Assembly (NCBI GenBank): GCA_973895155.1
Contig: OZ316892.1
Location: 18,900,357-18,964,356, forward strand
Origin: Marsupella aquatica
Taxonomy: Eukaryota; Plantae; Marchantiophyta
DNA: 64,000 nt
Direction of reading: 5' to 3'
The translations under genes were made by a program, and so were the position numbers. Positions 1 to 35,481 of the stretch are shown one piece after another; position 1 is the stretch's first letter, and each line of letters starts with the position of its first letter. The notes under the pieces were generated by a model that worked only from the letters and a program-made list of their open reading frames with translations, did not search any database and was not told where the DNA came from.

Positions 1-1902
1 TGGCAATATTCACTTACCCTATCCCAACGGCACTGCTGTGAGCTGTAGGACAGCCAACAGAAGCAGATTGTATCGATTGCATGTAAGTTAGGGTATTTTA
101 TGTATTGCGGAACAACTGTCCAAGTATGCTGCAATGGCCGGTCTTGCGCAGCTGAATGAGCCAATTTCATTTTCCCTGTGCACTTCTATTTCTCAGAGAA
201 TTCCCTGGTCATGCTCATTTCCCCCAGAGTTAGAAAACAAAGAAGAAGAGCTGACTAATTGTAATTCCAATCCATATCCTGATCGGTCAAGGATTGTTCA
301 CTACATTGGCCTTGTCATTGGCCGAGGTCACCAAATTTTGCTTGGTTTCATTCCTGTGGAGCACTGCTGTGATGGATTTGTCGTAGCATTCTGCAAACTC
401 TCACGGTTTGCTTATGGCCATTATTTGCAATTTGCTGCTACTAATATGTCTTCTTCTGAGCAGCATACACCAGAAGTAAGCAATAGTGGAGGTTTAACTG
501 CACATCAACACATCTATTGAACTACCTCTCTGCTGCTCACTGGAGGGTGAGACTTTCACTCTTTCTGGATATTGTAGTTTGTAAGCAAGTTGATTAGGAG
601 TGTTTCATGCTATGTTTACACTGTGACCCCTAGCTGGAACCAATGGAATGACACAGTGAGTGGGAACTGATAATTTAAGGTTGGTTGCTGTTGGTGAGGC
701 AAGTACAGCTCCTGCTCACCTTGCTGATCGAAGGTGCTTATCAGAGGACGTGAACACACGACATCTCCACAAAAGCAACACTTATGGTGAGGACCCGCAA
801 CGCTGAACATGTGCAGCTTGCACGCAAGGCAGAGATGTTGCGCCTTGAGTATGTCAGACTTGGGATCCTTCCAGCCCAGTCTGCATGGTACTTTGAGTAC
901 CCAGTTGTTGCCAGGAACAACTACAGCCGGCCTGTACCTGCTTCTCCACCCTTCCCAACATCCTTGGTATTTCTGTCTCTAGTACATGACCCGCCACAAA
1001 TTAGGGCCCAAGGGTGTGTGCACAGTTGCCAATATGACTATCCTGCCTGTAGGGCTTCTGGCCTAGAGTTGGATGACCGTTCTCTTGGATGTCGGTTTTT
1101 TCACAGAGCACAATGTATCATCTGGAACCACTCGCCATCCTGTAGTGTGCCTGGCGATGTCACTTGTCCTGCCCTCCCAGACCCCACCACCGGTCACTTT
1201 GGTGTCTACACATGTTTGGATCACACGCTCTAGAGGACCACTTGTCACACCGCATGCACAAACCAGAGACCATTGACCTATAACTTAACACTTTGACTTG
1301 AACAGAGAGGATATTTACTTAAGATTTTGAATTATGACCAATTTTGGGTCCAGGGTTTAGGGTCAACAGTACATAACTTATCCTATTATGGCTGCACTAA
1401 GTACAATATCCTAATTTAAGAGGCTAGCAAGCTCACTTAAAAGTCTCCTTTCAAAGACTGGAATTAATGGGCCATGTGATAACCTGGAAAAAGTGCTTTC
1501 TGCCTAACTTATTTGTCTCATTCACTATCATAGCCTATTTAGGATGTATAAATTACAACCCTCATCACAGTGCTTGATACCAATCCTGTTCAAAAAATGC
1601 ATGTTTTACATGTCACGACTGTTATATGTGATTCAAATGCATTAAATCTTGTTGCAGATCTCCTTTGGTGAATCATAGCCACAAAATTGAGGTGTAGGTG
1701 GAGCTATTGTACGAGGGGATCAGTTTTTAGTGTGGGCTCAACAAACCAAAAAGTATGTCTACTCTGCACATGTGTGTGAACATTTCATTGCAGTAGCAAT
1801 TGCCACTCTAGTCTATATGCTACATTGTACTTTTTGTACACTGCACTAAATTGTATTGTCTGTGCACTCTGCTAAATTGTACTATCTGTCTCATGCGTAG
1901 GC

Positions 1903-2583
1903 ATGGCACGCCCTAAAATCCGAGCCAAGAAGCGGGGGACAGAGGTGAGCAACACAGGTGTAGTTGGGCCAGATGGTAGTAACTTCTCCGCAAGTCAGAT
2001 TTTCCAGAAGGCAGCTCATTGTTGTGCCATTTGTGACGATGGTGGTGGCTTAGCCATATGTGAGGGCCCTTGCATGAGGCATTTCCACCTCAACCCGGAG
2101 TCTGACCTTGCTGCAGAAAACAACTGTCCAGGGGTGGGCCTCCCGTCAGCACACCAGGGAGGCTGGATGTGCACTGATTGTTTGGAGAAGCAGGCTAAGT
2201 GTGCACAGTGTGGGAAGTTGGGGTCTTATGAGGGCTCTGTTGATGCTCCACCACTTGTTAGGAAATGCCCTGACAGATATTGTGTGAGGTTCTTTTGTTT
2301 TTCATGTTTGCCCGATCTTGCCACAGCTTGCCCACTTCATAAGTGCAAGGCATGTGGTCAGCACGATGAAGATTTCTGGGTGGACATAGTCCACTGTGTT
2401 AGGTGTCCCACCATGTGGCACTTTCATTGTTTGAAGGAGCGTCAAGCAGAAGGCTATGCTTGTGACAGACACATCTATGATCACTCTGCACATGGTGTTG
2501 ATCGATGGATCTTCTATTGTCATCGCCATGCCATAGATCCTACTTTGCACACTCCCATGAGAGATCACATTTCTTGGCTTTGA
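1903..2583 (+). CDS. Stand-alone EDM2-type composite PHD finger protein (226 aa)
   Basis: CAICDDGG..CEGPCMRHFH, C..C..KQAKCAQCGKLGS, CPLHKCKAC, CVRCPTMWHFHCL and C-terminal IFYCHRHAIDPTLHTPMRDHI follow the EDM2 PHD region as I recall it (..LIYC..H.ID..L.TP.RDH). Splice acceptor CGTAG just before the ATG. Confidence 0.85.
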   Translation: MARPKIRAKKRGTEVSNTGVVGPDGSNFSASQIFQKAAHCCAICDDGGGLAICEGPCMRHFHLNPESDLAAENNCPGVGLPSAHQGGWMCTDCLEKQAKCAQCGKLGSYEGSVDAPPLVRKCPDRYCVRFFCFSCLPDLATACPLHKCKACGQHDEDFWVDIVHCVRCPTMWHFHCLKERQAEGYACDRHIYDHSAHGVDRWIFYCHRHAIDPTLHTPMRDHISWL

Positions 2584-3176
2584 ACCTGAATAATGTACAT
2601 GCATAGTGCACCTGATGTGGATACCTTGGAGATTGCAGACATTCCAATTTTGAGAAGAAGGACCTCTGTAGGAGAGGATGCTTAGGCAACAAGTACCCTA
2701 AGTTCATTACTTGTTCCTGGGTACATGCCTTCAAAAACTCCCCTTAAGCCTTCTAGGAACTTTTTTAACTCTGCAATCATTTTGATCACGACTTACATGA
2801 CACTGCTTAAATTAAATCAGGACTTCTCATTATGAGCATATAAGTTACAAGGCTATTTAATTTGCGAGAATTCCCTTAAAGTGTACCAACATTTTGTATT
2901 CTCATTGAATGTCTGCCCATTTACAACATCTGTATGTGGCATCACAAAACAACTTGTCACCTTCAATATTGTGAAGGCACATATTCAAACTATGAGGTGC
3001 ATGCTTGCAGGTGTCTAGTACGTTTGTCCCAATATTTCTCCCGTTTGGAATTGGAGCAGAGACTCGCCAGACGATTGGACTGGACCAAGTTATAAACGCA
3101 GCAGTTTAAGGGCCCTCCGATTATCAGGTGAACGCATTATCTTCCGGTCTGCAGTGATTAGGTGGCCCGTGTGTAC

Positions 3177-4025
3177 ATGGCCTCTAGGAAACGTACAAAG
3201 GTTGACCACCCGCCTCTGTTGGCTGGAATCAAAGCCATTTTGATTCCTGGCCACTATGGGTTCACCCAAGTGAGTTGGCCAATCGTACAAAAACGATTCT
3301 CAAAGTTCCATGGGACTGAAGTCAAGGACATCACTCCACAGACTACACATGTTGTTGCGGGGACATGGCTGGATGTGATGAACAAGTGGTCATGGTCCTT
3401 CATTGATTCTGCCATTACCAACCAAGGTCTAAAAGTAGTTGAAGTCTCTTGGCTGACCGATTCTGTTAAACATAGGTGTGTACAGAGTACTGAGCAATAT
3501 GAGTTGTGGGAGAGTGAGGAGGCCACTGCAGAGGCTTTGGCTGAAAAGGAAGCCTATGAAGCAGCGGCAGAGAAACCCAACTTTGCTTCTGTCCAATATG
3601 GACCTGTTGTCAACATAGGACACCATCCTATGCGTGCAGATGCTATATTGAATGAGCATGGCAAGGAGAGAAATACCATTATGAAGGGGTTCAGTGTGGT
3701 ATTTGCAGAAGAAGGAATTGGGGAGACTAAGTGCAGATTGTACAAGTCTATAGTTGTTGAGCTAGGTGGGACAGTGGAGGAGAGTCTAACAGAAACCTCC
3801 ACTCATGTTGTAGGTTTGTCATACATGAAAATATGCAGAAAATTCTTTAAGACAACAGTGCGTGATTTTGTCATGAACAACAATCTTTGGGTGCTTTCCC
3901 CTGATTGGCTTCTGGAATCAGCAGCTAGAGGGAAGCGACAGAATGCTTGGGACTTTGATATTTTTGAGGCCTGGCCCTCCAAGATTCAGCGGAGATGTAT
4001 GCTTAGCAAAGGTGGGAGAGAGTGA
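3177..4025 (+). CDS. Tandem BRCT-domain protein, BRCTs resembling the N-terminal BRCT of plant DNA polymerase lambda
   Basis: Two repeats of G.....T..THVV.....WL.(D/E)S, joined by an acidic/Ala-rich linker; N-terminal basic patch SRKRTK; ATG at 3177. Confidence 0.8.
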   Translation: MASRKRTKVDHPPLLAGIKAILIPGHYGFTQVSWPIVQKRFSKFHGTEVKDITPQTTHVVAGTWLDVMNKWSWSFIDSAITNQGLKVVEVSWLTDSVKHRCVQSTEQYELWESEEATAEALAEKEAYEAAAEKPNFASVQYGPVVNIGHHPMRADAILNEHGKERNTIMKGFSVVFAEEGIGETKCRLYKSIVVELGGTVEESLTETSTHVVGLSYMKICRKFFKTTVRDFVMNNNLWVLSPDWLLESAARGKRQNAWDFDIFEAWPSKIQRRCMLSKGGRE

Positions 4026-4102
4026 GGAGTAGGAGTCCCTCATATTTTTGTATAAATCACAATTTTGTAATAAATGTGATCCTTGAACTAACTCATCTTG
4101 TC

Positions 4103-4735
4103 ATGGTTGGTCGTAGTTGAAGTGATTGTTGTTTCCTGCTGCATGGGGTGTGACTGTGAATCTACTTGCTGGGCTCTGTTTGGCTGAAGACTTTGGTGGG
4201 TATGCTGCCTCTTCCAGACCGTCAGGCCCTATGTAGGGTCCTCCTACGGGTTGCATCGTGCATGGCTACTGCTTGGGCTTACTTGTGTGGATTGGTAACC
4301 AGACAGAGTGTAGCTCCATCCGAGATAATGCCTGCAGACCTTGGATGTGTTGTGAATGCTGTGGTGAATGAGGATGCACAGTCGGAAGAGGACATTTACT
4401 TTTCAGCAGATGAGTTAGACAAGCACGATGCTGTAGGTGGTTCCTTGTTGCCTGATTTGGCAGATGATATAGTTCTTACACATGTCTGGCCGAGGGTTCT
4501 TGTGGTGTCTGGCGCACAAGATATCTGCAAATATAGACTAATTAGTACCCAGTGGAGGGACTTGGTAGCAACATGTGCACCATGGAGGGCACTGCTGCCA
4601 CTGCTTGTAGGCACGGATCGAAGACCACCATGGCATGAGCAGGGTTTAGACCTTGATGACTTAATGTACATGCCTGAGTACCTCAGGGCTGAGTGGCATC
4701 GACAACAGGATTGGTATCCGTATTTGATGTGGTAG
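4103..4735 (+). pseudogene. F-box-like protein, probably degraded at the N-terminus
   Basis: SLLPDLADDIVLTHVWPRV...YRLISTQWRDLV F-box motif. An in-frame ATG at 4103 is followed by three TGA codons (possibly CGA>TGA) before the open 4166-4735 frame. Confidence 0.6.
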
Positions 4736-5061
4736 TAAGATGAGGACATCTCACACCGGTCTCGCACCTGGCACCTGTGTCTATGACTATACATGATTGG
4801 ACTCTGATATGGTCATGGATGTACGTGCAGAGGCAGTACATGTGAGGACAGCGGAGGAGTTGACACCCTCAAACATTTAGGAATTTTGTCTCATTCACTT
4901 GAGAATAGGTACATGACTCAGGCACCTATATTTTTTGTTTTTTTGTTTTTTTGGAACGTTACGTATTTTGGCAAGTACAGTCGGGGGTGAAATCCTTAAC
5001 AGGAAGTGTATTTTTCACTTGCATAATAAAATGACAGGGTGCTGAGTGCGTGTGTATAGTG

Positions 5062-8000
5062 ATGGCTCCAAGGTTGCCTCTTCACAACCCATTTAGGATT
5101 AGGCATCATGATTCTAAATTGTGGATGCGTGAACAAGCCCGGGCCGCCCAAGGTAGGAGTAGGAGGATGAGATGCCCATGCACACAGTGCCAAGGATTCA
5201 AGTCGTTGAGTTTGAATACTGTGCACCTTCACCTGTTGCGGCATGAAAGGCACCCTCGATGGAGGGTTTGGAATGTACCAGCAGAAGAAGACTCCTCTGA
5301 TGAAGAGTGGAGAGCTGACTTTGTGGATTCTAATACAGCTAGGCGTAGAGACTACGTAGAGCAGGACATAGACTGTGCAGAGGATGGTCCTGGGGTCCAA
5401 CATGAGAACGTGGATGACCAAGATGGAGATGGAGAGGCAGTCACTGAGGACGGTGGGATGGATGTCCCAAGAATGGTTCAAGAGATTTTTGAAGACCTTG
5501 ATGCTTTTTACGACACAGTGGAATCAGAAGAGGACAATGAACCACAGCCACACATTGGCGACGGCCAAGCTGAACCTGACTTTGACATTGGGGAAGGTGC
5601 AGCAGAGAGGGAGTGGGTGTTTGGGGGCCCAAAACACATCAAAGAAGCTTGCATTCCTATCTACGAGGGGTCGAACTGCTCCAAGCTGGGTTTTGTCGTG
5701 TTGTTGTTGAACATCTGTGGCAATCACAATGTTCCCAATATATTTGTGACAGAGTTGTTGACCTTCCTGCGCCGAAATGTGTTACCAGATGGTAATTCAA
5801 TTCCAAAAAATATGTACGAGGCTAGGAAATTGATGTCTAACCTTGGGCTGAACTATGTGTCTATTGACGCATGCCCTGATGGGTGTGTTCTCTTTCGCAA
5901 AGAGCATGCAGATAAATTGACATGCCCTCATTGTGGTAAGCACAGGTACAAGAATGTAGGGAAATGTACACACCCTGCCAAGGTTCTTCGTCATTTTCCT
6001 CTCATTCCTAGACTACAACGTCTGTTTAGATGCCCTGCCATTTCCAAGCTGATGACATGGACTCCTGATAACAAGAGCAGTGATGGCCTGCAGCGTCACA
6101 TTGGAGATTCCAACCATTGGAAATTTGTTGATGAGAGGTGGCCACAGTTTGCTGCAGAGAAGCGGAACTTTAGATTTGGTCTATCACTGGATGGAGTAAA
6201 CCCATTTGGAGACAAAAACAACCGTTATTCATGTTGGCCGGTTACGCTGCTAAATTACAACCTTCCCCCATGGATGACTACAAAGAGGTTTTTTGTCATG
6301 ATGGTGCTGTTAATCCCTGGACCAGCTTCTGTGACCGAGCAATTCATAGATATCATGTTGGCTCCAGCAGTGGAAGAGTGGAAGACTTTGTGGATAGAAG
6401 GGGTGTTAACCCATGATGTTCTGAAGGGGCTTCTTCGACCCAGCCCCTTTAGACTGCATGCAATTTGTTTGCTGGATATAGCAGATTACCCAGGCCATGG
6501 CATCATATCTGGACGAGTGACAAAGGGCTATGTGGGGTGCACACCATGTGGGAAAAATGTGACAAGTGAGTGGTCGCATGCCCTGCACAATATGAAATTT
6601 CAGGGGCATAGAAGGTATCTGCCTGTTGATCATCCTTACAGGCACACACGGTCTCAAATTGCACACTTCAACAACAAAACAGAGCTTCGTGGCCCACCAC
6701 AGAGGGTCACCAGAGAGCAAGTCCTGAGGTGGGCAGCCAGGAAGGCTGATTGGGACAAGAGAAGTGCCACTGATCGAGAACCTGAGGATCGAGTGGTGAA
6801 ACACGGTGTGAAAAGACAGACCTTGATGGACTTGGAGTTGGAGTACTGGAGGGTAATGTACTTAGCCTCCAGCCCCTGTATGATTGCAATTTTAGATTGG
6901 AGCAATGGTGGATTGATGTTGGTTACAATCCTCCTATGTGGTTAATTAGTGTTTCTGTTGTTGAATTCTTTGCTTTGTGGAGTGCAGGAATTCGAGCCCA
7001 GCAAACACAATGTGGACGTCATGCACATTGAGAAAAATATTTGTGAGAGCTTGCTGAAGTTCTTGTCGGGTGAGAAAGATACAGGAGCAGTACGAGCTGA
7101 TATGCAACAGAAGGGGATTCGCCCTCACCTTTGGTTGAAGCCCCATGCAAGCAATCCCAATGTACTTCTCAAGTTCCAAGCTCCCTATGTGTGTACACAG
7201 GATGAATGGAAGACATTCTTGTATAGATTGAGCTGTCTGAAAGTGCCCTCTGGCTATGCTGGTGCCTTCAAGAAGCATATTACAAAGAATAAACTTGGCA
7301 GTATGAAAACACATGACTACCATGTGTTGATGCAGCACATTCTGCCCCTATGCCTCAGAGGTCTCATGCAGAAACCAGTCCGTAATGTCATTCTTTGACT
7401 GTGCAATGTATTTCGCCGTATATGTGTGAAAGTGTGGGATCCCCAAGGATTGGAGCAGTTGAAGCAGGATGCTGCTTATGTCCTCTGTGACTTGGAGATA
7501 TACTTCCCCCCTGCTTTCTTTGATGTTATGACTCATCTCCTAATCCATGTGGTAGAAGAGCTAGGGCAGTATGGGCCAGTCAGTACCAGATGGATGTACC
7601 CTATGGAGCGATACATGAAGTTGTTGAAAGGTCATGTGAGAACATACTACAGGCCAGAGGCTTCCATGGCATTGGGGTACATTAAGGATGAGACGTTGGG
7701 ATTCCTAACAGAGTACATGGCTGGGTCTGGTGAAGCTATGACAAGAGTTTGGAAATCTGGTGAAGATGATGGAGTGAGTGGCGAGGTTGTTGAAGGTGTG
7801 GGACGTGCTGTTCAGCTGCCTGTTGCGATTTGAGACAAGGCTCATTCATATGTGCTGGCAAACACAGAGCCTATGCAACCATGGTGGAGGTGAGTGATTG
7901 AATTGACTTGCCTTTGTTGTGATGCTTCTTGTCTGTTCCAAGGGTGATCTTAGGTTGTCATGTGTTGTTTAGACCTAACTATGCCTGTACCTCATATTGC

Positions 8001-8762
8001 AGGGAATATGATATGCAAAAAGCTGCACACTCTGGGCAGCAGGATCCCTTCCCACAGTTCGAGCAGTGGATTCGGGTGACAATTTGAGAGCATAGTAGAC
8101 ATCACCCAGATATGGAGAAGGATTTGTATCTTCTATCTGTGCCACCACGATTGTCTATTCTGACCTACAAACGGATGAGAGCTTATGGAAATCATTATCG
8201 AGTGAGGGATGAGCAGGGTGACCATTGTGTATCATATGATTGTGGTTTGATTTCTGTGTTTGAGCAGAGAACCTCTGAAGAACAGAGGGGGTGGATGAAG
8301 ATGGGTTACGTGGGGGAGTTGACCGACATTTGGGTGTTGAATTATGGTAACACAAGTGTCCCAGTGATATTGATGAAGGGATCATGGGTGAAATCAGAGT
8401 GGCAGAGACCAAGGGCCACCATGAAGCGTGATCATGATGGGTTCTTGTTGGCCAATTTTAGGTCCAGAGTACCAGAATGGTCTGAGCCTTTTGTTTTCCC
8501 TAGCCAAGTTGAACAGGCTTTCTTTGCAGATGTGGAGGAGTCACATGGCTGGAGGGTGGTATGCCATAGCCAAGCACGGAACAGGCGGATGGATGGAAGT
8601 AAAGTAGAGTTCAGTTTGGATGACCATGCTGCATTCGAGCATCCTAGTCATGAGACTGTACTTCCAACTCGGGCAGGGACTGACTACATCCCCTTAACAT
8701 TGAGAGAGACATATGATGAACCTGGGCAAATGGAATATGATGAGGTTGATGATTTGCAATAG
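5062..8762 (+). pseudogene. CACTA TnpD/Tnp2 transposase (Transposase_21 + DUF4218 + DUF4216-like), spliced, inactivated
   Basis: CPCTQC, IDACPDGCVLF, LSLDGVNPF, YSCWPV..YNLPPW, DYPG, DVMHIEKN, MKTHDYH, FFDVMTHLLIH, WMYPMERYM, EPFVFPSQVEQAFF. Introns ~6853-6988 and ~7890-8002; in-frame TGA at 7396, 7831 and ~8085. Confidence 0.95.
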
Positions 8763-8939
8763 GCAACAGCTGGCGATTGGCAAGTATGAGGTTGAGGATG
8801 ACTACCTGCACAGAGTCACAGAACGGGAATTGCTGCCTGGAATGATGTTTAGGATAGTTGGATATGCATGAAATTGATTGATACTTTGAATTTAGTGTGC
8901 TGATTCTCCCTGTTTGGTTGTGGGTGCTGTGCAGAAGCT

Positions 8940-11900
8940 ATGGGGGAAGAGGGTGATGACATGGAGACAGACATGGGGCTTGGAGAGTGGGGTGAAGAGG
9001 AAAGATTGGATATGGATGGAGACCCAGATGCAGGGGGCTCACAGAAAAATGCACCTGTGCAAGATGCACAGGGCCCTCATCAAGTCCCAGGTAGGTGGGC
9101 AGCTAGAGAGAAATCACATAATCCATACCCTAGAAGGGGCCAGAGTTATTGGCAAGGGACGCCTGATAATTATGATGATGACTATGATGGAGCAGAAGAT
9201 GGATGGGATGAATATGAACACCCAGAGCGTGGTAGAGACGGGTACAGAGGGCAATGGAAAGGTGAGGAGGATGATTGGACAAGTAAGTGCCTTGTGCTAG
9301 TGATTTTGTGATGGTAGTAGAGATTTAGCTCAATATGCACTTATCTGATGTGTAGCTAGGGCAAAGAGTTTATCTTACAGGTCCATGAGTGTGGCATGTA
9401 CCTGTTGGTATGCAGACTCTGATTGGGACAATCACGAAAACAACAAAGGCCATCCACGTTCAGATAGGAGGCAATCATTCACAGGCGGGAGAAATGCCCC
9501 TAATTCATCAAGACAAAGCAATAGGACAGGTGGTCCAGAACCATCTATGCGCCAAGGGAGAGGTAACTTGGTCATTGCAGAATTGCTCTGAAGTCCACTG
9601 TATATTTGGCAGCGGGATTTATGATTCATACTTACCTAATGTAAGTGACTGTAAATGGATCCTGTAAATGTGCAGGGACTCCAGGGAGGTTTGGACAATG
9701 CAATCCAGGCCGTGGGGGGAGATCAGGCCGTGGAGGGATCCCAGGCCGTGGGGGGACACCAGGCCGTGGAGGGACACCTAGTAGCGCTTCAGGGATCACC
9801 AAGGCAGGAGATAGTAACAAATTTGGTAAAGTAGAAGTGAATTCCGAAGGTTGGATAACTCCCACATGTGATGGTAAGAACCGTTGGCATTCTGACCTAA
9901 GAGGAGAAGTATTGCGTTGGTTAGATTTGAGCATTACAGAGTTTAGGAGTCAGAACAAAGCTGATTGGGCTGCTATCTGCAAGGACATTCTTGAACGGTG
10001 GGAGTATGTTGGTAATGATGGTAAGGGCCCAGTTGAAGATTGCATATCAGATTATGCAATGAGGATTTTGAAACAAGAGAGGCATAGGTTGAAAAGGATG
10101 TGGATAGACAATGGTTCTAACAGGAGAATGCCACCACCCCCATCATTGGAACTGGATCAATGGACACAGTTAATCAAAGGGTTCATGTCGGAGGCTGGAC
10201 AGAGCAAGAGTGAACTGATGTCAAATGCTCGAGGCAAAGTGAAACACCTTTCACAGGCTGGGAGAGGAAGTTATGCTCCAGTGAAAGAACAATTGGTAAG
10301 GCAGTGACATGCCTGATAGTAAGCCTCAAACTTATCATCTTGCTACCATTATTACATTTTCATTGACAATCAACACTTGGTTTCATTCATATGTATGTTG
10401 ATGTGGACTGCAGAAGAAATTGACAGGTGAAGAACCATCAGCACAAGAAGTGAGAGAGGAGTTCATGAAACAAAGGAGTGAGGTGACAAGTGTAACTTCC
10501 AAACAGGTGATTATGTTGTAATTCTGTATGTTCTGTGACTATTTGGCCTTGAGCATCAGAAAGAAATGTAGTAGGAAGTAAGCAACCAGTTCTTGGGGAC
10601 AGTTATCTGAGATATGTAAGCTGTGTTATGACAGGGAACTGTTACAACTCTCACAGAGATGTGTGAACGGTTGAAGTCATTAGAGTGTGGACTCCCTCGA
10701 GTGGAAAGTAAATTGGCTGATCGTTTGGATATTGTGGAGGCATCTGTAGCGAACCTTCTTGCATCAGTGGAATCTAATTTCAAGCTTGTGATTGAAAAAT
10801 TGGGTGGTTCCCAACCAAACAATGAGGGCAACATTGTACAAAGTGTGCCCTTGTTAACAAAAAAGGGAATTGGCAATCTGACACAGGTATGGAAATGACA
10901 CCGGCCCATTGTTCATTGTGTCCTATGTTCAAATGTTAGAAGTAAGTTTTCATGAATTGAGTGAATGGTTTGAATGCAGGAAGAGTGGAGGCAGAGAAGG
11001 ACCCTGTAATCAGTAAGCAAAAGGGCAAGAAGGTTGCTGAGACAGGTAACCTGCTATGATCCAGTACATTACATTTGAAAAGTGCATGGAGTTTTGTGAA
11101 GCTTAAGCCGGTTGGAGGTAATCTTTTCTGTAAGAACTGGTTGGATGAACTGGGATCTGAAGTGACATCATGATTGATGTATCAGGTGATTCAAAGAGCA
11201 ATAATGAAGAAGATGTGCCCAGTGCCTCAGTGACCATAGCCAAGGAGGTATCAGGTAAGCTGATGCTTTAAATTCCTCTATATGAATGTTGAGCAACAAT
11301 TCAGTGGTTAATAGATTCAACGTGAATATTGTGGTGTGTTTATTGATCAACAGAAGCAGACATGGAGCATATGGCAATGGCAAAGAAGGGGAAGAAGGCT
11401 GTTCATAATGGTAAGGAGATAGTGACAACTTTGTGGTTGGTGACATGTACATTTAGCACATGTGATGAGTGATTGACTTATGTTGGACATGACACTGAAT
11501 TGTAGTTGATGCAGAGTTGACAGACTCTCAACCAAGTGGGAGTAGGGTGAAGCGACGTCGAAACTTGGGAGCAACATTGGATGCAAGTAAGATTGTAGAT
11601 GCTTCAATTGAAGCAAGTACAATGTTGGCAGATACTGAGATGATGTCACAGGGAAATCCTGCTACACAATCAGAAGTGTCAAATATGGATGCAGATTCTT
11701 TGAAGAAGAGTGTAGCCAATTCTCGATCACCAGCACAAAACACTCGTGCCAAAGTCATGACTCGCAACCAAGGTATGAATAATGTCATGTATAAGCCACC
11801 CAGGAAAGCCAAGAAAAACAGCCAGGGTAAGGTGGAGGTGATAGCCACAGCAGAGCCAGTCCATAATCTTCTATCATGGGAGGATGACTCGCAGGTATGT

Positions 11901-12110
11901 GTGGGTACAGGCATTTTGCGACCGGATCATGCAAAATTCCATGGCAAAGTGGTCCCGAATGACCATGTAGTAGTGTTGTTGACTACAGTGATTGTATCTG
12001 ATTGTAATTTGCCATTTCCGAATAGAGACGATGATCCACCTCAGGAAATAATTGCAGATGCAGTAGGATCTCTTGTGCTCTGGCCATCAGAGTGTGTTAG
12101 TCTGCAGTGA
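8940..12110 (+). CDS. CACTA TnpA-like multi-exon gene with C-terminal Tnp1/En/Spm-like domain
   Basis: Series of GT-AG bounded exons; PPPSLELDQWTQLI..F....Q.KSE.MSNAR (TnpA-like); last exon GTG....KFHGKVVP...VVVL...LPFP..DDPPQ...DAVGSLVLWPS. Confidence 0.75.
9705..9780 (+). repeat. 18-bp tandem repeat (x4) encoding PGRGG(T/I/R)
   Basis: CCAGGCCGTGG(G/A)GG.... repeated in a TnpA exon. Confidence 0.85.
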
Positions 12111-12938
12111 CTAAATGCAAGTGTAGATAGAATCATGTGAATTGTGTCACATTTTGACATTGCCTTGGAAAGATCCAAGAAATATCTGTACCAATTTTTC
12201 CATTTGGTAAAGAGGATGAAGGAGCCGTTGTGTGTGACATTGATATTTCTGAATTCTGTATGTATGAAACAAGTGATTGATGTCAAACTATGGCTCTATG
12301 GTGATTGTCTATGATACTTGAATCTGTTTTGTATCATTTCAGTATTAGTGTGTATGGTATAGAGGAATACTTTGTGACCTTCTTTGTAGTCTATGAAGTT
12401 TGAATCTGTGAATTCATATTAGTGTACATGGTATAGAAGATGGCTTTCTGAAACTATGTATTCTAATGTTAACATGATGAATGGTGAACTTATAGAGTGA
12501 GTTCATTCCAAGTACACAATAAAACATGAATGCAATATGTTATTTGTGCACAAGAGTGGGTTCATTCCAAGTAGTATAGTGGGGTCTTCATCACTCATAT
12601 CCAGTTGACATGAAAGACTTATACATACCCCACAAAGTATATTTAAAGACTACCCTCCATAACCTTTTTAGTCGTTCCCAACGACTCACCATCTCAGCCC
12701 ATAAAAGACTGAAAACGACTCACCAAAGCTACCCACACAAAGACTAAAATAGACTGAAAATCCAATCTATTAAACGACTTATAAACCAGTTCTATAAAGG
12801 ACTCAGTTGATTATAGTAACAAAACATACGACTCGCAGTCCTATAAAGGACTGGAGTCCTTCCCAGTCGTTTCCAAGTCCTATACGGTACTGAATAGTCG
12901 TTTAATGGGGTCTAAATACCCCCCGGTTTCTACTAGTG

Positions 12939-14530
12939 GACCAAACAAGATCCTTACGAAATGCCAATTGAAATAAATTATCATTGGCATTCAGAACCTC
13001 AGAATCTTTATGTACACCCCAGTCCTTTAGATTGATTTCAGTGGCACACTCCTTCTTGAAATCAACATTTGATGATGCTCCATTCTCTACAAATCGCATG
13101 TGAATGTAATTCACTCTTTGGATGGTGCTCATTTGTTCACGAAATTCAGAGTCTATATTATGACTCCAAGCTAAGTTCCTTGCTTCCTAGATAGACAAGC
13201 CTGCAAAGATCCAAGATTGCACTCTCCTATACAACTTGTTGTTGGGAAATTGTAATGCCAGGTCTGCCTTTGCACAAGCAGAATGATTTCCCCCAATCAC
13301 GTAATAGTGGTAATCATTCTTTTTTGAGAAATCAAAATCAGCTTGAGTTGGGCACTCCTTGGGATCAACCAAGAGAACAAAAGGTGCTGCCAATGGACTA
13401 GCTCCAGCTGCTTTCATCCTTGTTGTCAACTGTGTAAGAAAGTAGGGTTGGATATGCCTTACTTGGTACACTGGCAACTCCAAAGATTTCTCCCGAACAG
13501 GTGGGTGAAGTTGTGCAATGTCAATTGTGATTGTCTCCTCTTGAACTCCACACCTCATCAAAATCCCTTCCTGGTACACCACCCGAGCATCCATAGACAT
13601 AGATTGAGCCTTCTGCTCCAGATGAGTGGGGCCTTTTTCCAACGTCTGCTTCTTGGATTTTGGTGGACTTGGTCTTGCACCTTGAGAACCCTTTGGTCCA
13701 CGTTTCTTTGATGAACTCCGAGTATCGGTAGTGCCCTGTGCTGATCCTCCAGTCACAGTTGTCCCCTCTTGTGATCTTGCAATTTGTGAACCAGCACCTG
13801 ATATTGGAGATGTAACAACCATCTTTCTCGCTAGGACAGAACTTGGACGAGATCCGGAAGGAGCAAAAGAAGGACCAGACTTTGGTGGACGGGCACTGGC
13901 ACTCTTCTCTGCTGCTTTTCGAAGAATCTCCCTAGACTTTCAAATTGCACTCTTCAATGTGCTGGCATGATGTTCAAACACAAAACCAGCAATGAGCTCT
14001 GCAATCTCATCGTAGCTTTCTTCTGTAGACAGATTCTTCACCTTCTCAATGATCATCTCAATGTCATCAGGCAAGTAACAATGTGCAGCTCTTCCAGAAA
14101 ATCTCTCACTGTCAACTGCAATCAGTGTAGATGTCTCCTTTGTTGTGATAAGCATATTGAGGACATCAGTCCCTCGTCGAAAGACATCAATCCGGCCATA
14201 ATTCACCCAACCAAGACCTCCAGAAGGCAAGGTCTTGTAGATGCACAACATCAAAAAAGGCTTCTTCCACGATTCTGTACCCAATGATATTGTCCAGGAA
14301 GAGTTTCCAAAATCTGTCAAAGGATGCTCAACAAAAATAGCGTCTAACACCTTCTCCTGTGATTTTGGTTCAACCATTCTGACTTCCTGAAATCAAGTCC
14401 AACAATGCAAAGTCAGCTCTGTTTGTTTTTCAAGTTCAGTTGCAGAATTCAGGTTCATGATTTCATGAAGCAAGGTTCTTACCTTGACAGTGGAGTTGGA
14501 AGTTGAATTTGCAGCGCCTGTTGTTCCCAT
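12939..14530 (-). pseudogene. ParB/Sulfiredoxin-like domain protein (transposon accessory gene), 5' part only
   Basis: ORFs 13940-14377, 13187-13822 and 12902-13132 share a frame and are separated by single stops. IDIAQLHPP...YQVR...PFVLLVD...YYVIGGNHS..A...W..AGL....A..LAW.HN is a ParB-like pattern. Short first exon at 14530 and intron ~14481-14396. Confidence 0.6.
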
Positions 14531-14699: not shown

Positions 14700-15200
14700 T
14701 CAACTAAAGCTCCCTCTCTCGGCCTTTGACTATTGCTCCCTCCCTCACAGCGCCTCGACAATTTTCCTCCCCCCCGGCCTTAGCCAATTTCTTCCTCCCC
14801 CCCGGCCTTCGCCAATTTCTTCCTCCCCTGGCGCTTCGACTATTTTCCTCCCCCCGGCCTCGACAATTTTCTCCCCCCGGCCTCCACACGTTTTCCTCCC
14901 CCCGGCCTCGACACTTTTTCCTCCCCCCGGCCTGCGCCTCGACACTATTTCCTCCCCCAGGCCTTTGCCAATTTTTCCTCCCCTGGCCGGTGCTTCGAGT
15001 AATTCCCCTCCCCGAGGCCGACGCTTCTTCCCCGCGCCCCCGGCTGCGCCTCAACAATTTGTCCTCCCCCCGGACTTTGCCAATTTTGCATCCCTCCCCT
15101 GGCCTTCAAAAATTTCTCCTCCCTCCCACAAACTTTGCCAATTTCCTCTCCCCAGGCCTTCGACAATCCCTCCCCGAAAACTCTCTCCTGAGCACAAACT
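14700..15200. repeat. C-rich degenerate minisatellite (~24-28-bp unit, TTTTCCTCCCCCCGGCCTCGACA-like)
   Basis: More than a dozen visible units; G-runs on the minus strand. Confidence 0.9.
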
Positions 15201-18010: not shown

Positions 18011-20961
18011 TCTGAGAGTGATGGAGAGCTTGCAGAGAGAGTTATGATGGCTAATAAACGACCGTCAAATCTCAGCTTGTGTGAAACAAAGATGACAGAG
18101 GAGGATATCAAGCCGAACATTGGTATTGAGTTCTTGGTTGAAGTCTTTTTTTGAGACTCGTGTGGAGACTCTACCAAATAAAGATGTTTCACATTTGCCT
18201 GATAATTATTCCAAACTAGAAGTTTGGAAAATATATGATTCAAGCTATGTGATCACTGATGAGTCATCCAAAATATCATATCGGCAATTTTTGAAAGTAT
18301 GGTCACAAGACTTTGGGCATGTGAAGATTCCTCCTGTGAATCGTTTGAGTGCTTGTGCGAACTGTGAAGAATTCAAAACGATTCGAGACAAAGGAGTCTC
18401 GGAAACTGAAAAACGTAAGTCATTTTCATTTTTGTTGTTTTGAACATGTCTTTGTATTAGATTTGTCAGGAAATCAATTGAGTAATGGGTAAACATTAGG
18501 AATGAATTTCAAGCTAACAACTTTGCTCTACCATTTTTGGATTGATTGCAGGGAGAGGAGAAATAATGTTACAAAAACATCAAGAACAACAATCGAAAGA
18601 GCGGGAAAAACTAGCAAAGCATCGAAAGAAATGTTTCACAAACCCAGAAAAATATTTGCGAGTTGTGATAGATGGAATGGATCAAAAAAAGACTAGATTA
18701 CCCCATTGGCCACGTCCTCCAAAATCCGTTGATGAGTCCTGTTTAATCCAAATGCACGTGGTTGGTTGTCTTCTTTTCCACGGAGCACTATTTTCTAGAG
18801 TGTTCCTTAATTATCCAATTCTCCATAATGATGGAAATCTTACCATTACTATTTTACAAAGAGTATTCTTAGAATATCAAGAGAAGTATGGGGGCCTTCC
18901 ACCAGTTTTTTAACTTCAGCTTGACAATACAAGTAGGGAAAACAAAAACAATTTACTTTTCACATATCTTCACATGCTGGTACAAAAAAAGGTATTTCGA
19001 AAAATCAAACTTGGATTCCTCTTAGTTGGACACACCCATGATCAAATAGATCAGATGTTTAGTAGGTTCTCAAAAAGGCTTGGAAGATTTAAGGCCTTTA
19101 CCTATGATAGTTTATGTAAGATTATTCAAGAATCTTACCAACCCCAACCTGAAATTACCCTTTTAAATGAGACATATGATTTTCGAAAATTTTCTTTCTC
19201 AAAGCCTGCTTTGATCAGAGAAAGGATACGAAATGTTACGTTTCATCACCAATATAAAATTTCTTTTGCTTGTGAAGATGATCAAGTTCCAACACAATGG
19301 GGGAAGAAATTTTCCACCGACATGGTTTGGAAACCAGAAGGAGGTGTTAAATTGTTGAAAGAAGACATGCCACCAAAGGTGATTGGGTGCTCTGATGGGA
19401 TGCCACTTATCAAGAAAGGAGACAAGAAACGAGATGACGGAAGGGCGGGAAACCAAGCTCATGTATCATCTTCAGGAAAAATGACGTTGTCCGAAATGGA
19501 TGATTGTTTGAATGAAATTCAAAAAGGTATATTTGCAGCTCAAATATTATTCTCGGAAGAAGAAGTTGTTTGGTGGACTTCTTTTTTTGAGGAACAAAGA
19601 GAATTCAATCGATCTCTCTTGCTTGAAGAAAGACCTTTGATCTCTCCATTTGAATGGCCCAAGGCACAAGGGGATGCAAATGTTGAAGCTCATCTCGGAG
19701 CTGAACCTCTTACAACTATATTGAATGAGGAAGAAATTGAAGAGAGAGTGTACGGTCCAACTAGAGAAATTTATGTTGGTCCATATCGAAATCAAGAAAA
19801 GATAGATGCAGAGAAGGAGAATATGGAAGGTGATTTTTTGGATTTGGAAATCAACACATTTATTTCTGTGGCCGGAGAGAAGTCTGAATCATTTTGGGTG
19901 GCTAAAGTAGAAAAAATTGTTCTTCGCGATGAGGCTCACATCCCAAAGATTATCTCAGTTTTGTGGCATGCAGCAAAGAAAGGATCCGACCCTTGGAAAG
20001 GAAAATATCTGCCAGAAGTGTTGAGTTACGAGAAGAAGAAAAGTGGACGAGGCAAGGGAACCTTGAAACCAGTTTGGTTTTGTCAAGACCTTGATCTGTC
20101 TTCAACTACGGTCTTTGCATATAATTTTATGCTAACAAGGTCTGATACTCTTTACAAGAAAACAATAGATCGTATTAAAATACGACTCTCAGAATTTCTC
20201 AAGGAGAAGCAAGACCAAGAAGGTGAAGGTAGCATAGTTAGAAATTATCAACAAGAAACTTCAATGGAAGTTCCTCTAGAAATGAATGGTAGGAATTGAG
20301 ATTTACCAATCTTAGCAATTTTGTCAAACAAGTGTATTTGCAATTTATTATTGTTTGAGTTGGTGGCAAACCATAAATGTTGTGAACATTGATGAATTCA
20401 TGAATTCATGAATCATATTGAAAGAAGTTTGACATTTTGAGAATGTCCATCGTGTGGCCAGTCTTGTTTGAGAAATTCAGAAAACAAAATATTAACTAAA
20501 AGAGGTACCTTCTAGAATCCCATATATATTTGAAAGCTTTTGATATACTCGTCATTCCCTTTGTGTGATCAAATGATGGTTTTTCTTGGTAAATGAACCC
20601 TAGGATCCTACAAACTGCAAAATAATTCAGAAATCTTGACCCTCTTTTGAAAACTTTACATATTTGGGATGTCAATGAACTTTAGGGTGGTATTTCAAGG
20701 GTGAATGTGTTATTGAGCCGATTGAATGTGTGCTAGTAATAAATTGCAACATTGAAATATGTGGTATTTGCTTATTAAATGTTTCCCACAACCAGTTTTG
20801 TGATTTTGAGTAGTCAAAATGATGCCCTATTTTGTGTTTTTTTGCAAGTTTTGAGTTCTTGCCAAAAAAAGAGCTTGTTTTTAGATGCATTTTTTGGCTT
20901 TTTCCATATTTTCAAGGTTTTTTATCATTAGTTCTTATACATTGGGCTTATTACCCATCCT

Positions 20962-22679: not shown

Positions 22680-23145
22680 TGTTACCTGGTGTTTTTTTTA
22701 CTTGGACAGAAAATCAGTTTTTTGCTTATGTCAGTGGCAGTGTATGAGTGGCAGTGTATGAGCATCCTATCTTTCCTCTAGTAATTTTTTAGGTGTTTGT
22801 TTTACCAAGGCAGCACATCAATTTTGTACTTTGTTTACCAGAGTGTTTGGTATGGAGCGCCCTACCTTACTCTAGTAATCTTTTTAGGTGTTTTTTTACT
22901 TAGGCAGCACATCAGTTTTTTACTTTGTTTACCACAGTGTATGGGATGGAGTGTCCTACCTTTCTATCGTAATCTTTTTAGGAGTTTTTTTTACTTAGGG
23001 AGCACATCAGGTTTTTTCTGTGTTTACCACAATGTATGGGATGGAGTGTCCTACCTTTCTATAGTAATCTTTTTAGGTGTTTTTTTTTACCTCGGCAGCA
23101 CATCAGTTTTTTTCTTTGTCTACAACGATGTATGGGATGGAGCCT
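22680..23145 (+). repeat. ~83-bp tandem repeat (5-6 units) ending at the transposase start codon
   Basis: TAGTAATCTTTTTAGGTGTTTTTTTACTTAGGCAGCACATCAG...GTATGGGATGGAG units. Confidence 0.9.
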
Positions 23146-26100
23146 CCTGATCTTCCTAGTAGACGTCGTAAACGTCCTCCTCAGGGTGTTGGTCCTTCAA
23201 GACCAAAGTACCCAAGTGATGACATGGAATATAGGAAGAGGACAAGACCAGTTGCCAAGCCACCAATCCGAGTCCCATTGGAGCGATGGGATGAGTGGGA
23301 GGGTCTTAGGGGTTTATTGGGGGATGGCCCAAATACAACACATGCTACAGTTGTTCACTGGTTGATTGACACTTGTAGAGTTCAAATTGATGAGTTGAGG
23401 ATGCAGGGAGCAAATGAGGCAGCAACAATCCAGCATGATGCATTGGCACCTGGGGCAGAGACACCAGAACCATCCGCTGCACCCGACACCATCATGTTTG
23501 ATCTCAATTCAGACCTGGTTGAGGAGGAGCCAAATGTAGGTTCTTCTGGGTTATTTGCCTTCCTGCCTCATTTTCATTGGAAAGATTTATCACAATTTCT
23601 GATGTTGTGTCCAATGAAAGTCACACAAGTCCCTATGTCTCAGGTTCAACTTTGTTTGTGTAAGACTATGTATTTCTCTTACATTGTACATTGTAAAAGC
23701 CTATATATCCAAAATGGAATTAACTACAACACTAGTCTAACAAATGGATTTTGGTCTGAAGTCATGGATTTCAATGGACAACTTTTCTCTGTTTTTTGTA
23801 TTGTATCAAATTGAAGTCACACACTTCCCTTCTGCTTAGTGAGCCTAACAATTGCGGTAAATTTTCAGGACTCTTTACATGAGCAGCAGCCCACACATTA
23901 TGAGGGAGGAACGGGGGGAGGACATGATGTTTTCAGGACTATTTATATGAAATTGTTAGATGTATCATGCTAATTATATGTACCCAAATTATATAATTAG
24001 CACTAGAAAAATATTTCTCAAGCACATTGTTATCTCAAACTCCAACAATTACTTGACATGTCATGCAGGATGACAACAACTCCATCCGGCCAGAGGACAT
24101 GGTAGAGTCCTTTGGAGTGGAAGAGGAGGACATCATACCTTTGGGTGGATCTGATGACCCAGATGTTTTAGTTGCTCTAGGGGTTGAGGTATGTCATGCC
24201 TAAAAGCTTTTGTTCAGTTTTTATTGCAAATGTCACATTTTTTACTTCTAACTGATCTGCTTGTTTTGTGGTTGCAGACCTTGAGCTCGGATCTTCATGT
24301 TGAAGATGATGCACCGTCCATTATTCATGACTCTCAACCTTTACCAACACAGGTCATAGATTCTCAAAGCGATGTAGTACTAGATTGTCAACCTCCAATT
24401 GTCCCTCCTTTTGCTGCAGATCCTATTAGAACTAGATTTGCAGCTCGTGTTCCAGCTAGAGTTGGTTTTCTAGAGTGTCATTTGATACATACTTTTGTAG
24501 ACCAACTACTTCCTACATGTCATACATCTGGATGTCCTCTCACTCCTCGAGTAGAGCATATTCATGAATTGCAGCAACTATGGTCCATTCGTATTAGTTG
24601 TGGTCAGGAAGGTCATGGGTGGACTTTCCTTACTGGTGAGATGGAGCCAGGGAGGGGCACACCTATGATTACACCTATGTTATATCACTCCACATTGTGC
24701 ATTGGCTTGACATATTTGGCATTGGCCTCAGTCACTTCACATTTAGGATTACATGTTCCTAGTCCACATCATTGGCATGATTTCCAGACTGGCCATGGAC
24801 GACCTAGAGGAGGATGGATTGCGGCAATGAAGGGCCAGTGGGAGGCAGAGAAAAGGGTGTTGTGGCAAGAGTTGAAGGATGGTCTATAGTATAGGCGTGA
24901 CCACAATCCCCATGAAGCAGGTTAGTGTCAAGTTTATAACATACTTGAGTGTTCATTACTCTCAACCTTTTTTTGGGACAATATAATGACTTAGTAAATT
25001 ATTTTGTGGGTTTTTACAGATCCTGGTCTAGTTGTGTATCTAGATTGCAGATGGGACTCATCCAGGAGTGGTTATCATGGGGCTGTTTCCATTATCAATG
25101 TAGAGGATAATAGGGTCATTGAAATGGTAACTACTACTAGAAAGGAGGAGGCCAATTCATGGTACCATGAGGAGAGGGGAACCAGAAAGGCATTGGAGAG
25201 ACTTCGAGATAACGGTATTGTCATAAAGGAGGCCATCCATGATGATAATAGGACGGTAGATACTGTTATTGATGACTTGGGGATCAACAATCAGAAAGAC
25301 ATGTGGCACAAGGCCAAACATTTGTGCAAAAAATTTGTGGAGAAGGTGGTCAAGGCCACCTTTCTTATCAATGTGGATATTGATCTTGCCACAACTAGGT
25401 CGGCCTTGACAGCTGCCACTTGCAAGAATTTGCAAGATTGGTTGAAAGCCCGCAACGAGTACAGGGGTTGCTCCAACCTGAGAAATACAGGGGTTGCTCC
25501 AACCTGAGAAAGGATGCGTTAGTCCATAAGGTGGCAGATATTAGAGGATTGCCAATGGAGACATTGGTCCCTGTAGTGACCCGTGGATTGAAACATCCAG
25601 AGCTTGTGCAACACCCAAGTTGAAGACTTGGTTTTATGTTTGTTGTTGTCGTTGCAAAAATACGTAAGTATAATTTTTCTTATTTGAATTTTTTCAGGAT
25701 TGTTATTTTATTTTTCACAAGGTTGCTATCTTGTATGTTTAGTGTAAGGCTGGAGAACTGGACAATATAATTATTTATAGATGCTCTTTTGTTGTGCAGA
25801 GGAGGGAATAGTGAGTCATTGGCCTATGAGCTAAGCAATTGTGCCTATCATTGGGCTGGTGTTCATACAAAATGCTTGACATTGCCTGATCGACCATGTC
25901 ATCACATTCACGAGGAGGGAGCTACACAGCTAGACTTATATTATGAGAGAGGTGTGCAACTAATTTATGTCCATATTTTATTTCATATGTTGTCAATAAC
26001 CTGACATTATTATTTGCCAACCAAAGACTGACTATTCATTTTCTGTTGTAATGCAGATTCGCCCACTCACCTGGCCATGAAGAGTTTCATGGCCAAGTAC

Positions 26101-26400
26101 ATAAAGCCAACGAAGATGTCATTTTACACTATGGCTAGGGAGAATTTCATGTCAGAAACTTTTCATTATGTGATGGGAAAGTATGCCACCAAACGGATTC
26201 ACTTTCCTGCATCTCATGAGGCACGACTATTTTGTGCTGGACTAGACTGGAATGAAAATATTCGGCGCCCTGTTTGGAAAGTGTATGACCGTGTACCTGT
26301 GAACACTGCCGTAAGAGATAGGCCTGCCCGCACTCGAGTCATGGTTGCAAGGAGCACAACTTGGAAGGATCAAATAGGCACACATATCTATGGAGTTTGA
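23137..26400 (+). pseudogene. Kolobok-type DDE transposase, multi-exon, inactivated
   Basis: YLDCRWDSSRSGYHG (D.R.DS), SWYHEERG..KAL..L...GI.I....HD, KDMWHKAK, HWAGVH..C, SETFH.V..KYATKR..F...HEARL..A.LDWNEN parallel the Kolobok transposase motifs. A 26-bp duplication causes a frameshift at ~25460-25510; stop at 24887. Confidence 0.75.
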
Positions 26401-34200: not shown

Positions 34201-35481
34201 GATGTTGTTGCATCCAAACATTCCACCACAGAATCCACATGCTCCACTCTAGGAGCAATGACATCTCCTTCCAAGATGTACAAATTATTCTGCCGTAGTG
34301 CCTTAATCAAAGATATATCATCTTTGACGACAAACAGCGCACCATCACGTGCAATGAATTGAGATCCACCAGCTTCCAAAGCACCAAGAGAAATCAAGTT
34401 CTTAGAGATGTCTGGTATGTGCCTGCTGACTCTCGTCAATGCTCGCACAACACCGTCAAACATCCCAAATTTGATAGTCCCCATGCCAACAATCGCACAT
34501 CGGACACCATTTCCAATTTCCACAGTACCGGTACAAGGTTGGTAAGTGGAGAAATACGATTGCGTTGGACACACGTGATAAGAGGAACCCGAATCCAACA
34601 TCCATTTATTGTCATACACAGAATTCATAGCACCAATACATAGCACTTCAGCAGCATCCTCATTATCAGCAATCACAATATCAGCTGACGATGAGGACGC
34701 ACCATTGGAAGCAGGACGCTTCTGCTTCGATAGAGAAGGACAATTCCACTTGGTGTGACCCTTCTCATGGCAATGCCAACACTGAACTTTCTTACTACGG
34801 GACTTAGATTTAGATCTACTATGTGATTTAGATCTAGACTGATCCGTAGTACGCTTTGTCGATCTGCCTCTAACCACTAAGGCAGCAGACTCATTGTCAC
34901 GGCCAGAAAGTTGTCGCTTGCGCCATTCTGCAAGAATGGTAGCCTTTACCTCATCCAGCTTCAACGTAGACTTGTCATGTGTGATAACCGTCACCAACGT
35001 CGAATAGCTCTGAGGAAGCGACATCAACAAATGCATCGCAAGATACTCATCGGTCAACTTGTCTCCCGTCGTGGCCACCTCGTGCACAATCTCATCAAAG
35101 AGACTAAGGTGATCACGCATGTTGCCACCCCTTCAACTTCAACCTGAACAGCCGCTCCAAGTGATAAATGCGAGTAGTCAACGAAGTACTCTGGTATAGC
35201 TCAGTAAGCATATCCCAAATTTTCTTGGCGTTACGATCCATCCCCAACACGTTCTTGAGAATATTGTTTGCCAAGAACAACTCAATTGTGCTACACGCTT
35301 GCACCGACATGTCCTCCCACTCCTCATCTGTTAGATTCGAGGGTTTCACTCCAGTGAGGGTCTTCTCAAGACCCTGTTGGATCAACACATTGGTCACCTT
35401 CCAAGTCCACAGGCTGAAGCTGACCTTCCCGTCAAACTTCTCCACCTCAAACTTTGGCGCCGCAAGCTTTCTTGAAGTCAT
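31216..35481 (-). pseudogene. Copia gag-pol polyprotein
   Basis: EKFDG, CWHCHEKGHTKWNC, LDSGSSYH, VRSDNGGEY, TPQQNGVVER, YKARLVAKG, LYVDDM, DSDYAG, HARTKHIDI; frameshift ~35130, stops at ~32445 and ~31380, MITE insertion. Confidence 0.95.
33140..33516. mobile_element. 377-bp MITE inserted in the Copia integrase region
   Basis: Imperfect TIRs GGGGTAT.../...ATACCCC with direct repeat CTACTGT on both sides. Removing the insert and one repeat restores NLSPHSSKLMQTPFELW in frame. Confidence 0.9.

Follow-up and report, generated by a model that had tools for sequence, protein, structure and literature searches.

The stretch analysed here, called the window, comprises 64,000 nucleotides of the liverwort Marsupella aquatica (assembly GCA_973895155.1, contig OZ316892.1, positions 18,900,357 to 18,964,356 of the forward strand). 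The right-hand 13 kb of a CACTA transposon makes up its first 12,938 bases; in this element, separate single-exon genes, referred to as the cargo, precede the transposase gene TnpD. The clearest of them encodes a small PHD finger protein related to the host protein EDM2. The features of the element and of its insertion target are the following (positions in the window; aa, amino acids).

1..783, no strand: inner portion of the left side of the element, whose left terminal inverted repeat (TIR) lies beyond the window
784..1233, plus strand: ORF0, an open reading frame (ORF) of 149 aa rich in Cys and His (8 Cys, 7 His), likely a fourth cargo gene
1903..2583, plus strand: single-exon gene of a stand-alone EDM2-type composite PHD finger protein of 226 aa, assigned by matches to EDM2 orthologs, zinc ligands and a structure model
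1906..1932, plus strand: N-terminal motif [AST]-R-x-K-x-x-[AS]-x-K, in the histone H3 register R2/K4/A7/K9, assigned by motif counts in the stand-alone family
3177..4025, plus strand: single-exon gene of a tandem BRCT protein of 282 aa (PF00533 twice, E 7e-14)
4202..4735, plus strand: gene of an F-box-like protein of 177 aa with three homologues, dispensable in at least one lineage
5062..8762, plus strand: TnpD transposase gene, assigned by Pfam, with modelled GT-AG exons 5062-6852, 6988-7889 and 8003-8762 (1150 codons)
8904..12110, plus strand: TnpA-like multi-exon gene, exons not resolved, with a Transposase_24 match on 9645-10304
12613..12902, no strand: subterminal short repeats, 16 copies of related 6-8-nt motifs in both orientations
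12909..12938, plus strand: right terminus, ending in TAGTG
12939..14392, minus strand: insertion target, the coding sequence of an unrelated repeat interrupted by the element, with minus-strand frames reaching the junction

The assignment to CACTA is based on both TnpD and the right end. A Pfam scan identified Transposase_21 (E 9e-60), DUF4218, DUF4216 and Transpos_assoc in TnpD, which are the domains of a CACTA/EnSpm transposase. The Transposase_24 match of the TnpA-like gene is weak (E 0.0095, under the Pfam cut-off). The right end reads ...CTACTAGTG at 12938; its TAGTG end and the subterminal repeats correspond to a CACTA right terminus, and the GAC that follows at 12939-12941 is the predicted target-site duplication. 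The expected left TIR has no match across the whole window at 2/13, 4/18 or 8/25 mismatches, hence none within 4735-5062. This agrees with the first-pass annotation of the locus, which had seen no CACTA left terminus between the cargo and TnpD. A Pack-CACTA identity is ruled out by the presence of TnpD and by the long branch that separates the cargo from host genes. The two frames scanned in the target repeat gave no Pfam match, and beyond this repeat (14700-15150) lie C-rich tandem repeats of 25-56 nt that look subterminal. A further ORF at 29544-30383 (plus strand) is 37% identical to the last TnpA-like exon (E 2e-21) and probably belongs to a second element with the same domain.

Upstream of TnpD, three compact, co-oriented ORFs (PHD, BRCT x2 and F-box) had been described in the first-pass annotation. 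All three are present, each as a single exon, but a fourth ORF at 784-1233 had been overlooked. The number of ORFs this long expected by chance in 5 kb is ~0.0015 for the PHD, ~0.00006 for the BRCT and ~0.02 for the F-box-like ORF. The CpG depletion said to be shared by the cargo (0.31) and TnpD-TnpA (0.29) is real, but it is not diagnostic of membership; it was discarded as evidence, the flanking transposable element (0.31) and the region at 22-31 kb (0.32) being equally depleted.

A comparison of the PHD ORF with 1.84 billion representative sequences yielded 243 matches at E <=0.001. Among the 150 listed, the long matches are EDM2 and its relatives, over query residues ~38-225, and the name EDM2 is carried by three of the ten clusters looked up (Arabidopsis, Aristolochia and Cryptomeria). 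Three NSD-type PHD matches were found in Pfam (E 1e-5 to 6e-3). The ORF spans the whole composite PHD and the C-terminal cap, and it retains all 25 Cys/His columns that are invariant in seven host proteins. In the family alignment, 22 of the 25 zinc-ligand columns are invariant, versus 24 of the 201 other columns. The structure model (mean pLDDT 87) is an NSD-type PHD array; its best VIA match is PHDvC5HCH of NSD2 (Z 5.0, root-mean-square deviation 2.6, 74 residues aligned). Foldseek ranks PZP and NSD PHD domains on top with low TM-scores, which indicates only "PHD-like", and the PDB sequence search gave no match at E 0.01. Judged by its sequence, the PHD ORF is a derivative of the EDM2 composite PHD, which sharpens the earlier description of a chromatin reader.

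The rest of EDM2 is absent from this 226-aa protein. The ORF ends after the PHD, without the RFD found in P0161 and P0052 and without the methyltransferase-like (ELP) domain. In a careful tree of 36 rows, the 11 stand-alone proteins of 187-245 aa form a single clade (11/11 rows, support 100/100); P0046 and P0035, from both of which the anchor motif is absent, were left out of this tree. The clade is recovered in a quick tree of 143 rows with an SH-aLRT of 91, four other short rows and P0067 being placed elsewhere. Identities of the PHD ORF to its stand-alone homologues range from 82% down to 38%. The nine clade members looked up, apart from the window protein, all come from raw assemblies and are without informative names. 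Among named sequences, the closest are EDM2-like paralogues of the liverworts Calypogeia, Marchantia and Riccia. The clade is sister to five liverwort paralogues at 93/68, but the topology test does not reject its union with the full-length EDM2 of Marchantia (p-AU 0.31). The statement that each cargo ORF lacks the catalytic part of its parent is therefore only partly valid for the PHD gene, as these nearest named host paralogues already stop just after the PHD. Family-specific changes on the long branch are the loss of a ~22-aa loop in PHD2 and a new N-terminal motif. A metagenome scan with the PHD alignment detected nine loci among 221 candidates, all with 25-46% identity and on contigs of <=4.6 kb; the one locus examined encodes a 332-aa EDM2-like protein. 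A viral scan detected none (0/42).

According to the structure model, the PHD protein consists of little more than its PHDs and a disordered arm of ~30 aa. This basic arm sits 28-40 residues ahead of the first cysteine and takes the place of the acidic run that precedes PHD1 in full-length host EDM2. Of 19 family rows, 16 have the loose form of the motif, against 0.32 expected from shuffled arms, and 8 have the strict form (0.02 expected); 20 rows were picked, of which 19 were usable, the rows are related, and the motif was defined after the data had been seen. It occurs in none of 105 long host proteins, in which the same interval was examined. Ala occupies position 7 in 10 of the 15 anchored rows, and Lys occupies position 9 in 10 of them; these positions correspond to A7 and K9 of H3. 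R2 and K4 of H3 are as written in PMC9898751. The motif directly follows the initiator Met in about half of the members, and after removal of this Met it would have a free N-terminus like that of H3. The likeness to H3 consists of residue spacing alone. The arm is a candidate histone mimic or a candidate nuclear localisation signal, the latter also being basic and conserved.

The tandem BRCT protein has a full-length homologue at 61% identity, and its two BRCTs are 24% alike (E 2e-6). It had been labelled "NHEJ-type" (non-homologous end joining), which is not established: the matches of the pair to ligase IV (E 0.0069) and BRCA1 (E 0.02) leave the parent undecided. The pair matches TdT at E 0.29, and the best match of BRCT2 alone is BRCA1 (E 0.11). 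Presumably, the pair also resembles the BRCT of plant DNA polymerase lambda. The PDB sequence search with this ORF gave no match at E 0.01, and its structure model has a pLDDT of only 33. In X1, one of the public contig sets described below, a joint at 3622-3714 (main-family depth 1799) spans the linker between the BRCTs with unknown letters; this linker may differ in most X1 copies.

The F-box-like frame (4160-4735) most likely starts at ATG 4202, because two of its three homologues align from a Met there. These homologues are 51-55% identical and share a conserved C-terminal block. The homologous frames have F-box or F-box-like Pfam scores (E 0.001-0.035, all under the gathering cut-off), and the frame itself matches PF00646 only at E 0.08, also below this cut-off. 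The matches to FBXW11 and FBXL5 have E values of 0.6-0.7. For ORF0, no credible match was found in Pfam, NCBIfam or PDB. An ORF of 128 aa at 134-520 (plus strand), also in the left part of the element, is a possible fifth cargo gene; it has no Pfam match, one of its two listed variants is synonymous, and the contig set X3 carries a 6-nt in-frame insertion at 377.

The window stretch was found in 9 of the 11 listed public contig sets (five organism codes, seven studies), none recorded as RNA, and seven of the 11 were compared. Contig depth in these sets is not copy number; within this limit, cargo and TnpD have similar depths, about ten-fold above the flank. In X1, single contigs have depths of 1712 (at 3052), 1772 (4114), 1817 (4784-5669), 1912 (5698-7341), 1949 (7814-8680) and 1766 (9097-9748). 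Depth remains at ~1700-2070 over the spacer before the BRCT gene, the BRCT-F-box spacer, TnpD, TnpA and the right end, and is 163 for the contig beginning at 12939; this step at 12938/12939 marks the right terminus. The X1 contig at 4784-5669 joins the F-box-TnpD spacer to TnpD with five differences. In X5, depth is ~39-62 within the element versus 4-7 in the flank. At the left, positions 222-599 have a depth of 39.4 in X5 and positions 162-429 a depth of 2323 in X4, values like those of the element, in agreement with 1..783 being part of it; at 154-161 the X1 depth is only 108, and the extreme left is less certain. Depths alike in cargo and TnpD, at roughly ten times that of the flank, make it most likely that the cargo moves along with the element. 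The cargo ORFs are thus not single-copy host genes, an alternative that the first-pass annotation had named. In X6, diverged relatives of the PHD, BRCT2 and TnpD sequences have depths of hundreds to thousands, and near-identical pieces ~6-11, which hints that these genes are also present in other repeat families.

Selection was assessed on the variants listed, which are 40 out of 912 and 40 out of 466 substitutions and, for indels, 12 out of 61 and 12 out of 27. Among the 14 distinct small indels listed in 1-5061, 13 fall outside the four ORFs, which occupy half of this stretch, and the one within is a 3-nt in-frame change at the end of the BRCT ORF. This avoidance has a p of 0.006 when 11 independent events are counted. 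Synonymous changes among the close-copy variants number four of eight in the PHD ORF and one of five in the BRCT ORF, with none listed for the F-box-like ORF. ORF0 has 7 synonymous variants of 12 against an expected share of 0.27 (p 0.02), and is likely a fourth cargo gene; with ORF0 added to the three named ORFs, 12 of 25 are synonymous (p 0.015), and TnpD has six of nine (p 0.011). Compared with the diverged homologues, replacements are more conservative than in a neutral codon simulation in six of seven pairs. Selection on the cargo proteins is thus well supported by the small indels and the conservative replacements, even if the close-copy variants of the three named ORFs do not differ from neutral. 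It likely acted while the genes sat on a CACTA element, and may have done so in the diverged homologues.

These observations lead to an explanation that we favour with moderate confidence. The left arm of a repeated CACTA family would carry accessory genes, each separate and with a single exon, which selection on the element likely maintains. The clearest case, the EDM2-derived PHD protein, is predicted to bind H3 tails in H3K9-methylated chromatin and would likely blunt silencing by competing with host readers. Host EDM2 binds H3K9me2 and controls the marks and transcript processing of transposable elements (PMC7529245, PMC10241880, PMC3632883). Because Arabidopsis Spm elements, once activated, retain H3K9me (bioRxiv 10.64898/2026.08.24.746577), a CACTA element could gain from a reader of this mark. 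The PHD protein may keep the H3K9me2 preference of EDM2 and, without the RFD and the methyltransferase-like domain, would act as a cap or decoy and not as a full AAE subunit. The H3-like tail could be a switch, or a bait for H3K4/K9 enzymes and readers. The BRCT pair would bring proteins of break repair to sites of excision or insertion; the F-box-like protein would serve, as an optional component, as an SCF adaptor or a decoy. For the anti-silencing role, which we infer, the composition of the element offers a weak, indirect hint: it is CpG-poor (0.31) yet hardly CWG-poor (0.94; spacers 0.97), unlike four relic segments nearby, in which CWG is depleted (0.64-0.78, z -2.7 to -4.9).

A bolder version of this account is doubtful. 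It holds that a CACTA lineage of non-seed plants made a captured heterochromatin reader a weapon, in which a minimal EDM2 PHD with an H3 tail mimic would cap H3K9me2 or soak up H3K9 writers and readers. The H3K9me2-CHG loop would thereby be broken on the element, within a fixed cassette that also contains BRCT repair and F-box degradation adaptors.

Several results weigh against the favoured explanation. For the three named ORFs pooled, 5 of the 13 listed variants are synonymous (p 0.20), which is not distinct from neutral, and PHD versus P0003 is the pair whose replacements show no conservatism beyond that of the neutral simulation (178 of 300). Larger deletions strike cargo ORFs in some copies. 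A 43-nt deletion cuts the F-box-like ORF to 57 aa in the main X5 lineage (depth 42.7) and in a minority of X2, and the ORF is dispensable in that X5 lineage because it is truncated there. The first-pass proposal of an accessory toolkit, as opposed to random fragments, is supported by the full-length single-exon homologues (38-82% identity) and by the signs of selection at the protein and indel level, but not by the F-box ORF, which is frameshifted in this lineage. None of the diverged homologues is placed in a CACTA element, and no listed contig bridges two ORFs, so that linkage relies on this assembly and on depth. The Marchantia annotation contains a 280-aa PHD-only EDM2-like gene (P0070), and stand-alone host genes thus exist. 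TnpD of the window copy, which is intact in autonomous CACTA elements, is interrupted by three internal TGA stops (7396, 7831 and 8085) that the first-pass annotation had left unnoticed. The stops are most simply explained by decay of methylated CGA codons, and the window copy is unable to transpose on its own. CWG is not clearly depleted in the copia (0.86), the flanking repeat (0.89), the gene region (0.96) or 49-64 kb (1.03) either. The direction of the PHD effect is not given by ancestry, because Arabidopsis EDM2 promotes marks of silencing at Mu1, a DNA transposon, and suppresses them at COPIA4 (PMC7529245).

The same evidence of selection and co-amplification would be obtained if the cargo were selected on the element with the PHD protein as a targeting or transcription adaptor. 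Such an adaptor would anchor TnpA/TnpD or factors of RNA processing on H3-marked chromatin, for insertion into heterochromatin or for read-through of a long element. The window copy is indeed inserted in the ORF of another repeat, and host EDM2 suppresses cryptic polyadenylation in heterochromatic transposable elements (PMC10241880). However, a single insertion site is of little weight where repeats are so abundant, and the protein is made almost only of PHDs and a short disordered arm, without the RFD of EDM2. The adaptor role is possible, if on the whole improbable.

The cargo could also consist of passive hitch-hikers or "camouflage", that is, host retro-copies or fragments captured recently and intact and amplified with the element, the signal of selection dating from their earlier life as host genes. 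The lack of significant synonymous excess in the close-copy variants of the three named ORFs and the loss of the F-box in one lineage are in line with this, and gene capture by CACTA elements and camouflage by small interfering RNA are published (PMC13317346). Moreover, the stop-codon test is biased, since only intact ORFs are found in databases. What makes passive carriage unlikely is that the best BLASTP-style identity of the PHD ORF to long host proteins is ~33-48%, over partial stretches, on a long branch with the PHD2 loop loss and the new N-terminal motif, and that indels avoid the ORFs inside the element family itself.

Finally, the left part (1 to about 2600) could come from another repeat, nested or not, or from a non-autonomous family derived from the element, in which case neither ORF0 nor the PHD gene would be a stable part of the CACTA element: summed over 518-2585, the X1 depth exceeds that of TnpD two- to three-fold, many joints lie around 1200-1870 and no left TIR is present in the window. 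This is very improbable, as the interval between the PHD and BRCT genes shows neither a terminal repeat nor a target-site boundary, the X5 depth over 222-599 equals that of TnpD and the right end, composition is uniform, and the extra depth, which may come from a separate repeat, may equally come from diverged subfamilies or deletion derivatives sharing these genes.

The remainder of the window contains other repeats and a host gene. A 461-aa frame at 18914-20296 (plus strand) with DUF7869 (E 7e-36) is probably what remains of a transposase, in a region with strong CWG depletion. An intron-containing gene or transposon relic without a convincing Pfam match lies at 22690-26400 (plus strand), preceded by four tandem repeats of ~95 nt (22786-23150). 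A Ty1/copia retrotransposon with gag, integrase and RVT_2 occupies 31383-35132 (minus strand). The main CpG-undepleted region contains an OVATE-domain host gene, a single frame of 728 aa at 45424-47607 (minus strand, E 1e-26). A degenerate tandem array of at least 13 copies of ~76 nt is located at 52490-54770, and an inverted pair of 162-nt repeats, 989 nt apart and resembling a miniature inverted-repeat transposable element, at 62092-63404.

Compared with known systems, the element resembles En/Spm in the domain set of TnpD, the TnpA-like gene, the subterminal repeats and the TAGTG end (bioRxiv 10.64898/2026.08.24.746577); it differs by four extra single-exon genes upstream of TnpD. TnpA of Spm is itself anti-silencing, acting via DNA motifs and host demethylases and leaving H3K9me in place (bioRxiv 10.64898/2026.08.24.746577). 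PHD, EDM2, BRCT and F-box do not occur in the main text of that survey of 962 Spm proteins, its supplements being outside the scope. In the literature searched, which left most subscription journals outside its scope, no CACTA element with an EDM2-type PHD, BRCT or F-box cargo is described. Pack-CACTA and Tgm-type captures likewise have host-derived sequence within CACTA ends (PMC13317346). In contrast to these, the transposase gene is present here and the cargo consists of whole, highly diverged, intron-free ORFs with conserved homologues, and not of recent scraps. What is new in this work is the EDM2 identity of the PHD ORF with its old stand-alone clade, the H3-register motif, the fourth ORF at 784-1233, and the ORF-avoiding indels together with the conservative replacements. 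It has long been asked whether DNA transposons ever retain captured genes as whole new genes that benefit the element, and this question is thereby made testable.

Like Arabidopsis EDM2, the PHD ORF has the composite PHD of 2.5 repeats, all host-invariant Cys/His columns and the C-terminal cap. It differs in its length (226 versus 1297 aa), in the absence of the RFD, PGR, the methyltransferase-like domain and introns, in the basic H3-like arm that replaces the acidic run before PHD1, and in the ~22 residues gone from PHD2. Such a minimal protein would serve to test the EDM2 PHD alone. The histone mimic VRK1 (R2-x-K4, bound by the PHD of PHF2; PMC9898751) has the same N-terminal spacing, to which most members of the PHD family add a K9-like lysine; viral histone-mimic motifs are on record (PMC11738798), and G9a is a further histone mimic. 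In the PHD family, by contrast, mimicry is suggested by sequence only, and the literature searched contains no precedent for a histone mimic encoded by a transposon. VANDAL elements of the MULE superfamily also have accessory genes apart from the transposase, VANC and KIU/Ulp1, of which one includes a domain captured from the host, and VANC acts against silencing (PMC13317346). They belong to another superfamily, and VANC reads DNA motifs (PMC13317346), whereas the cargo described here includes a predicted histone-tail reader. Since the known counter-silencing proteins, VANC and TnpA, both read DNA motifs, a captured reader of a silencing histone mark, perhaps combined with a tail that mimics a histone, would, if true, represent a second route in the arms race between host and transposon.

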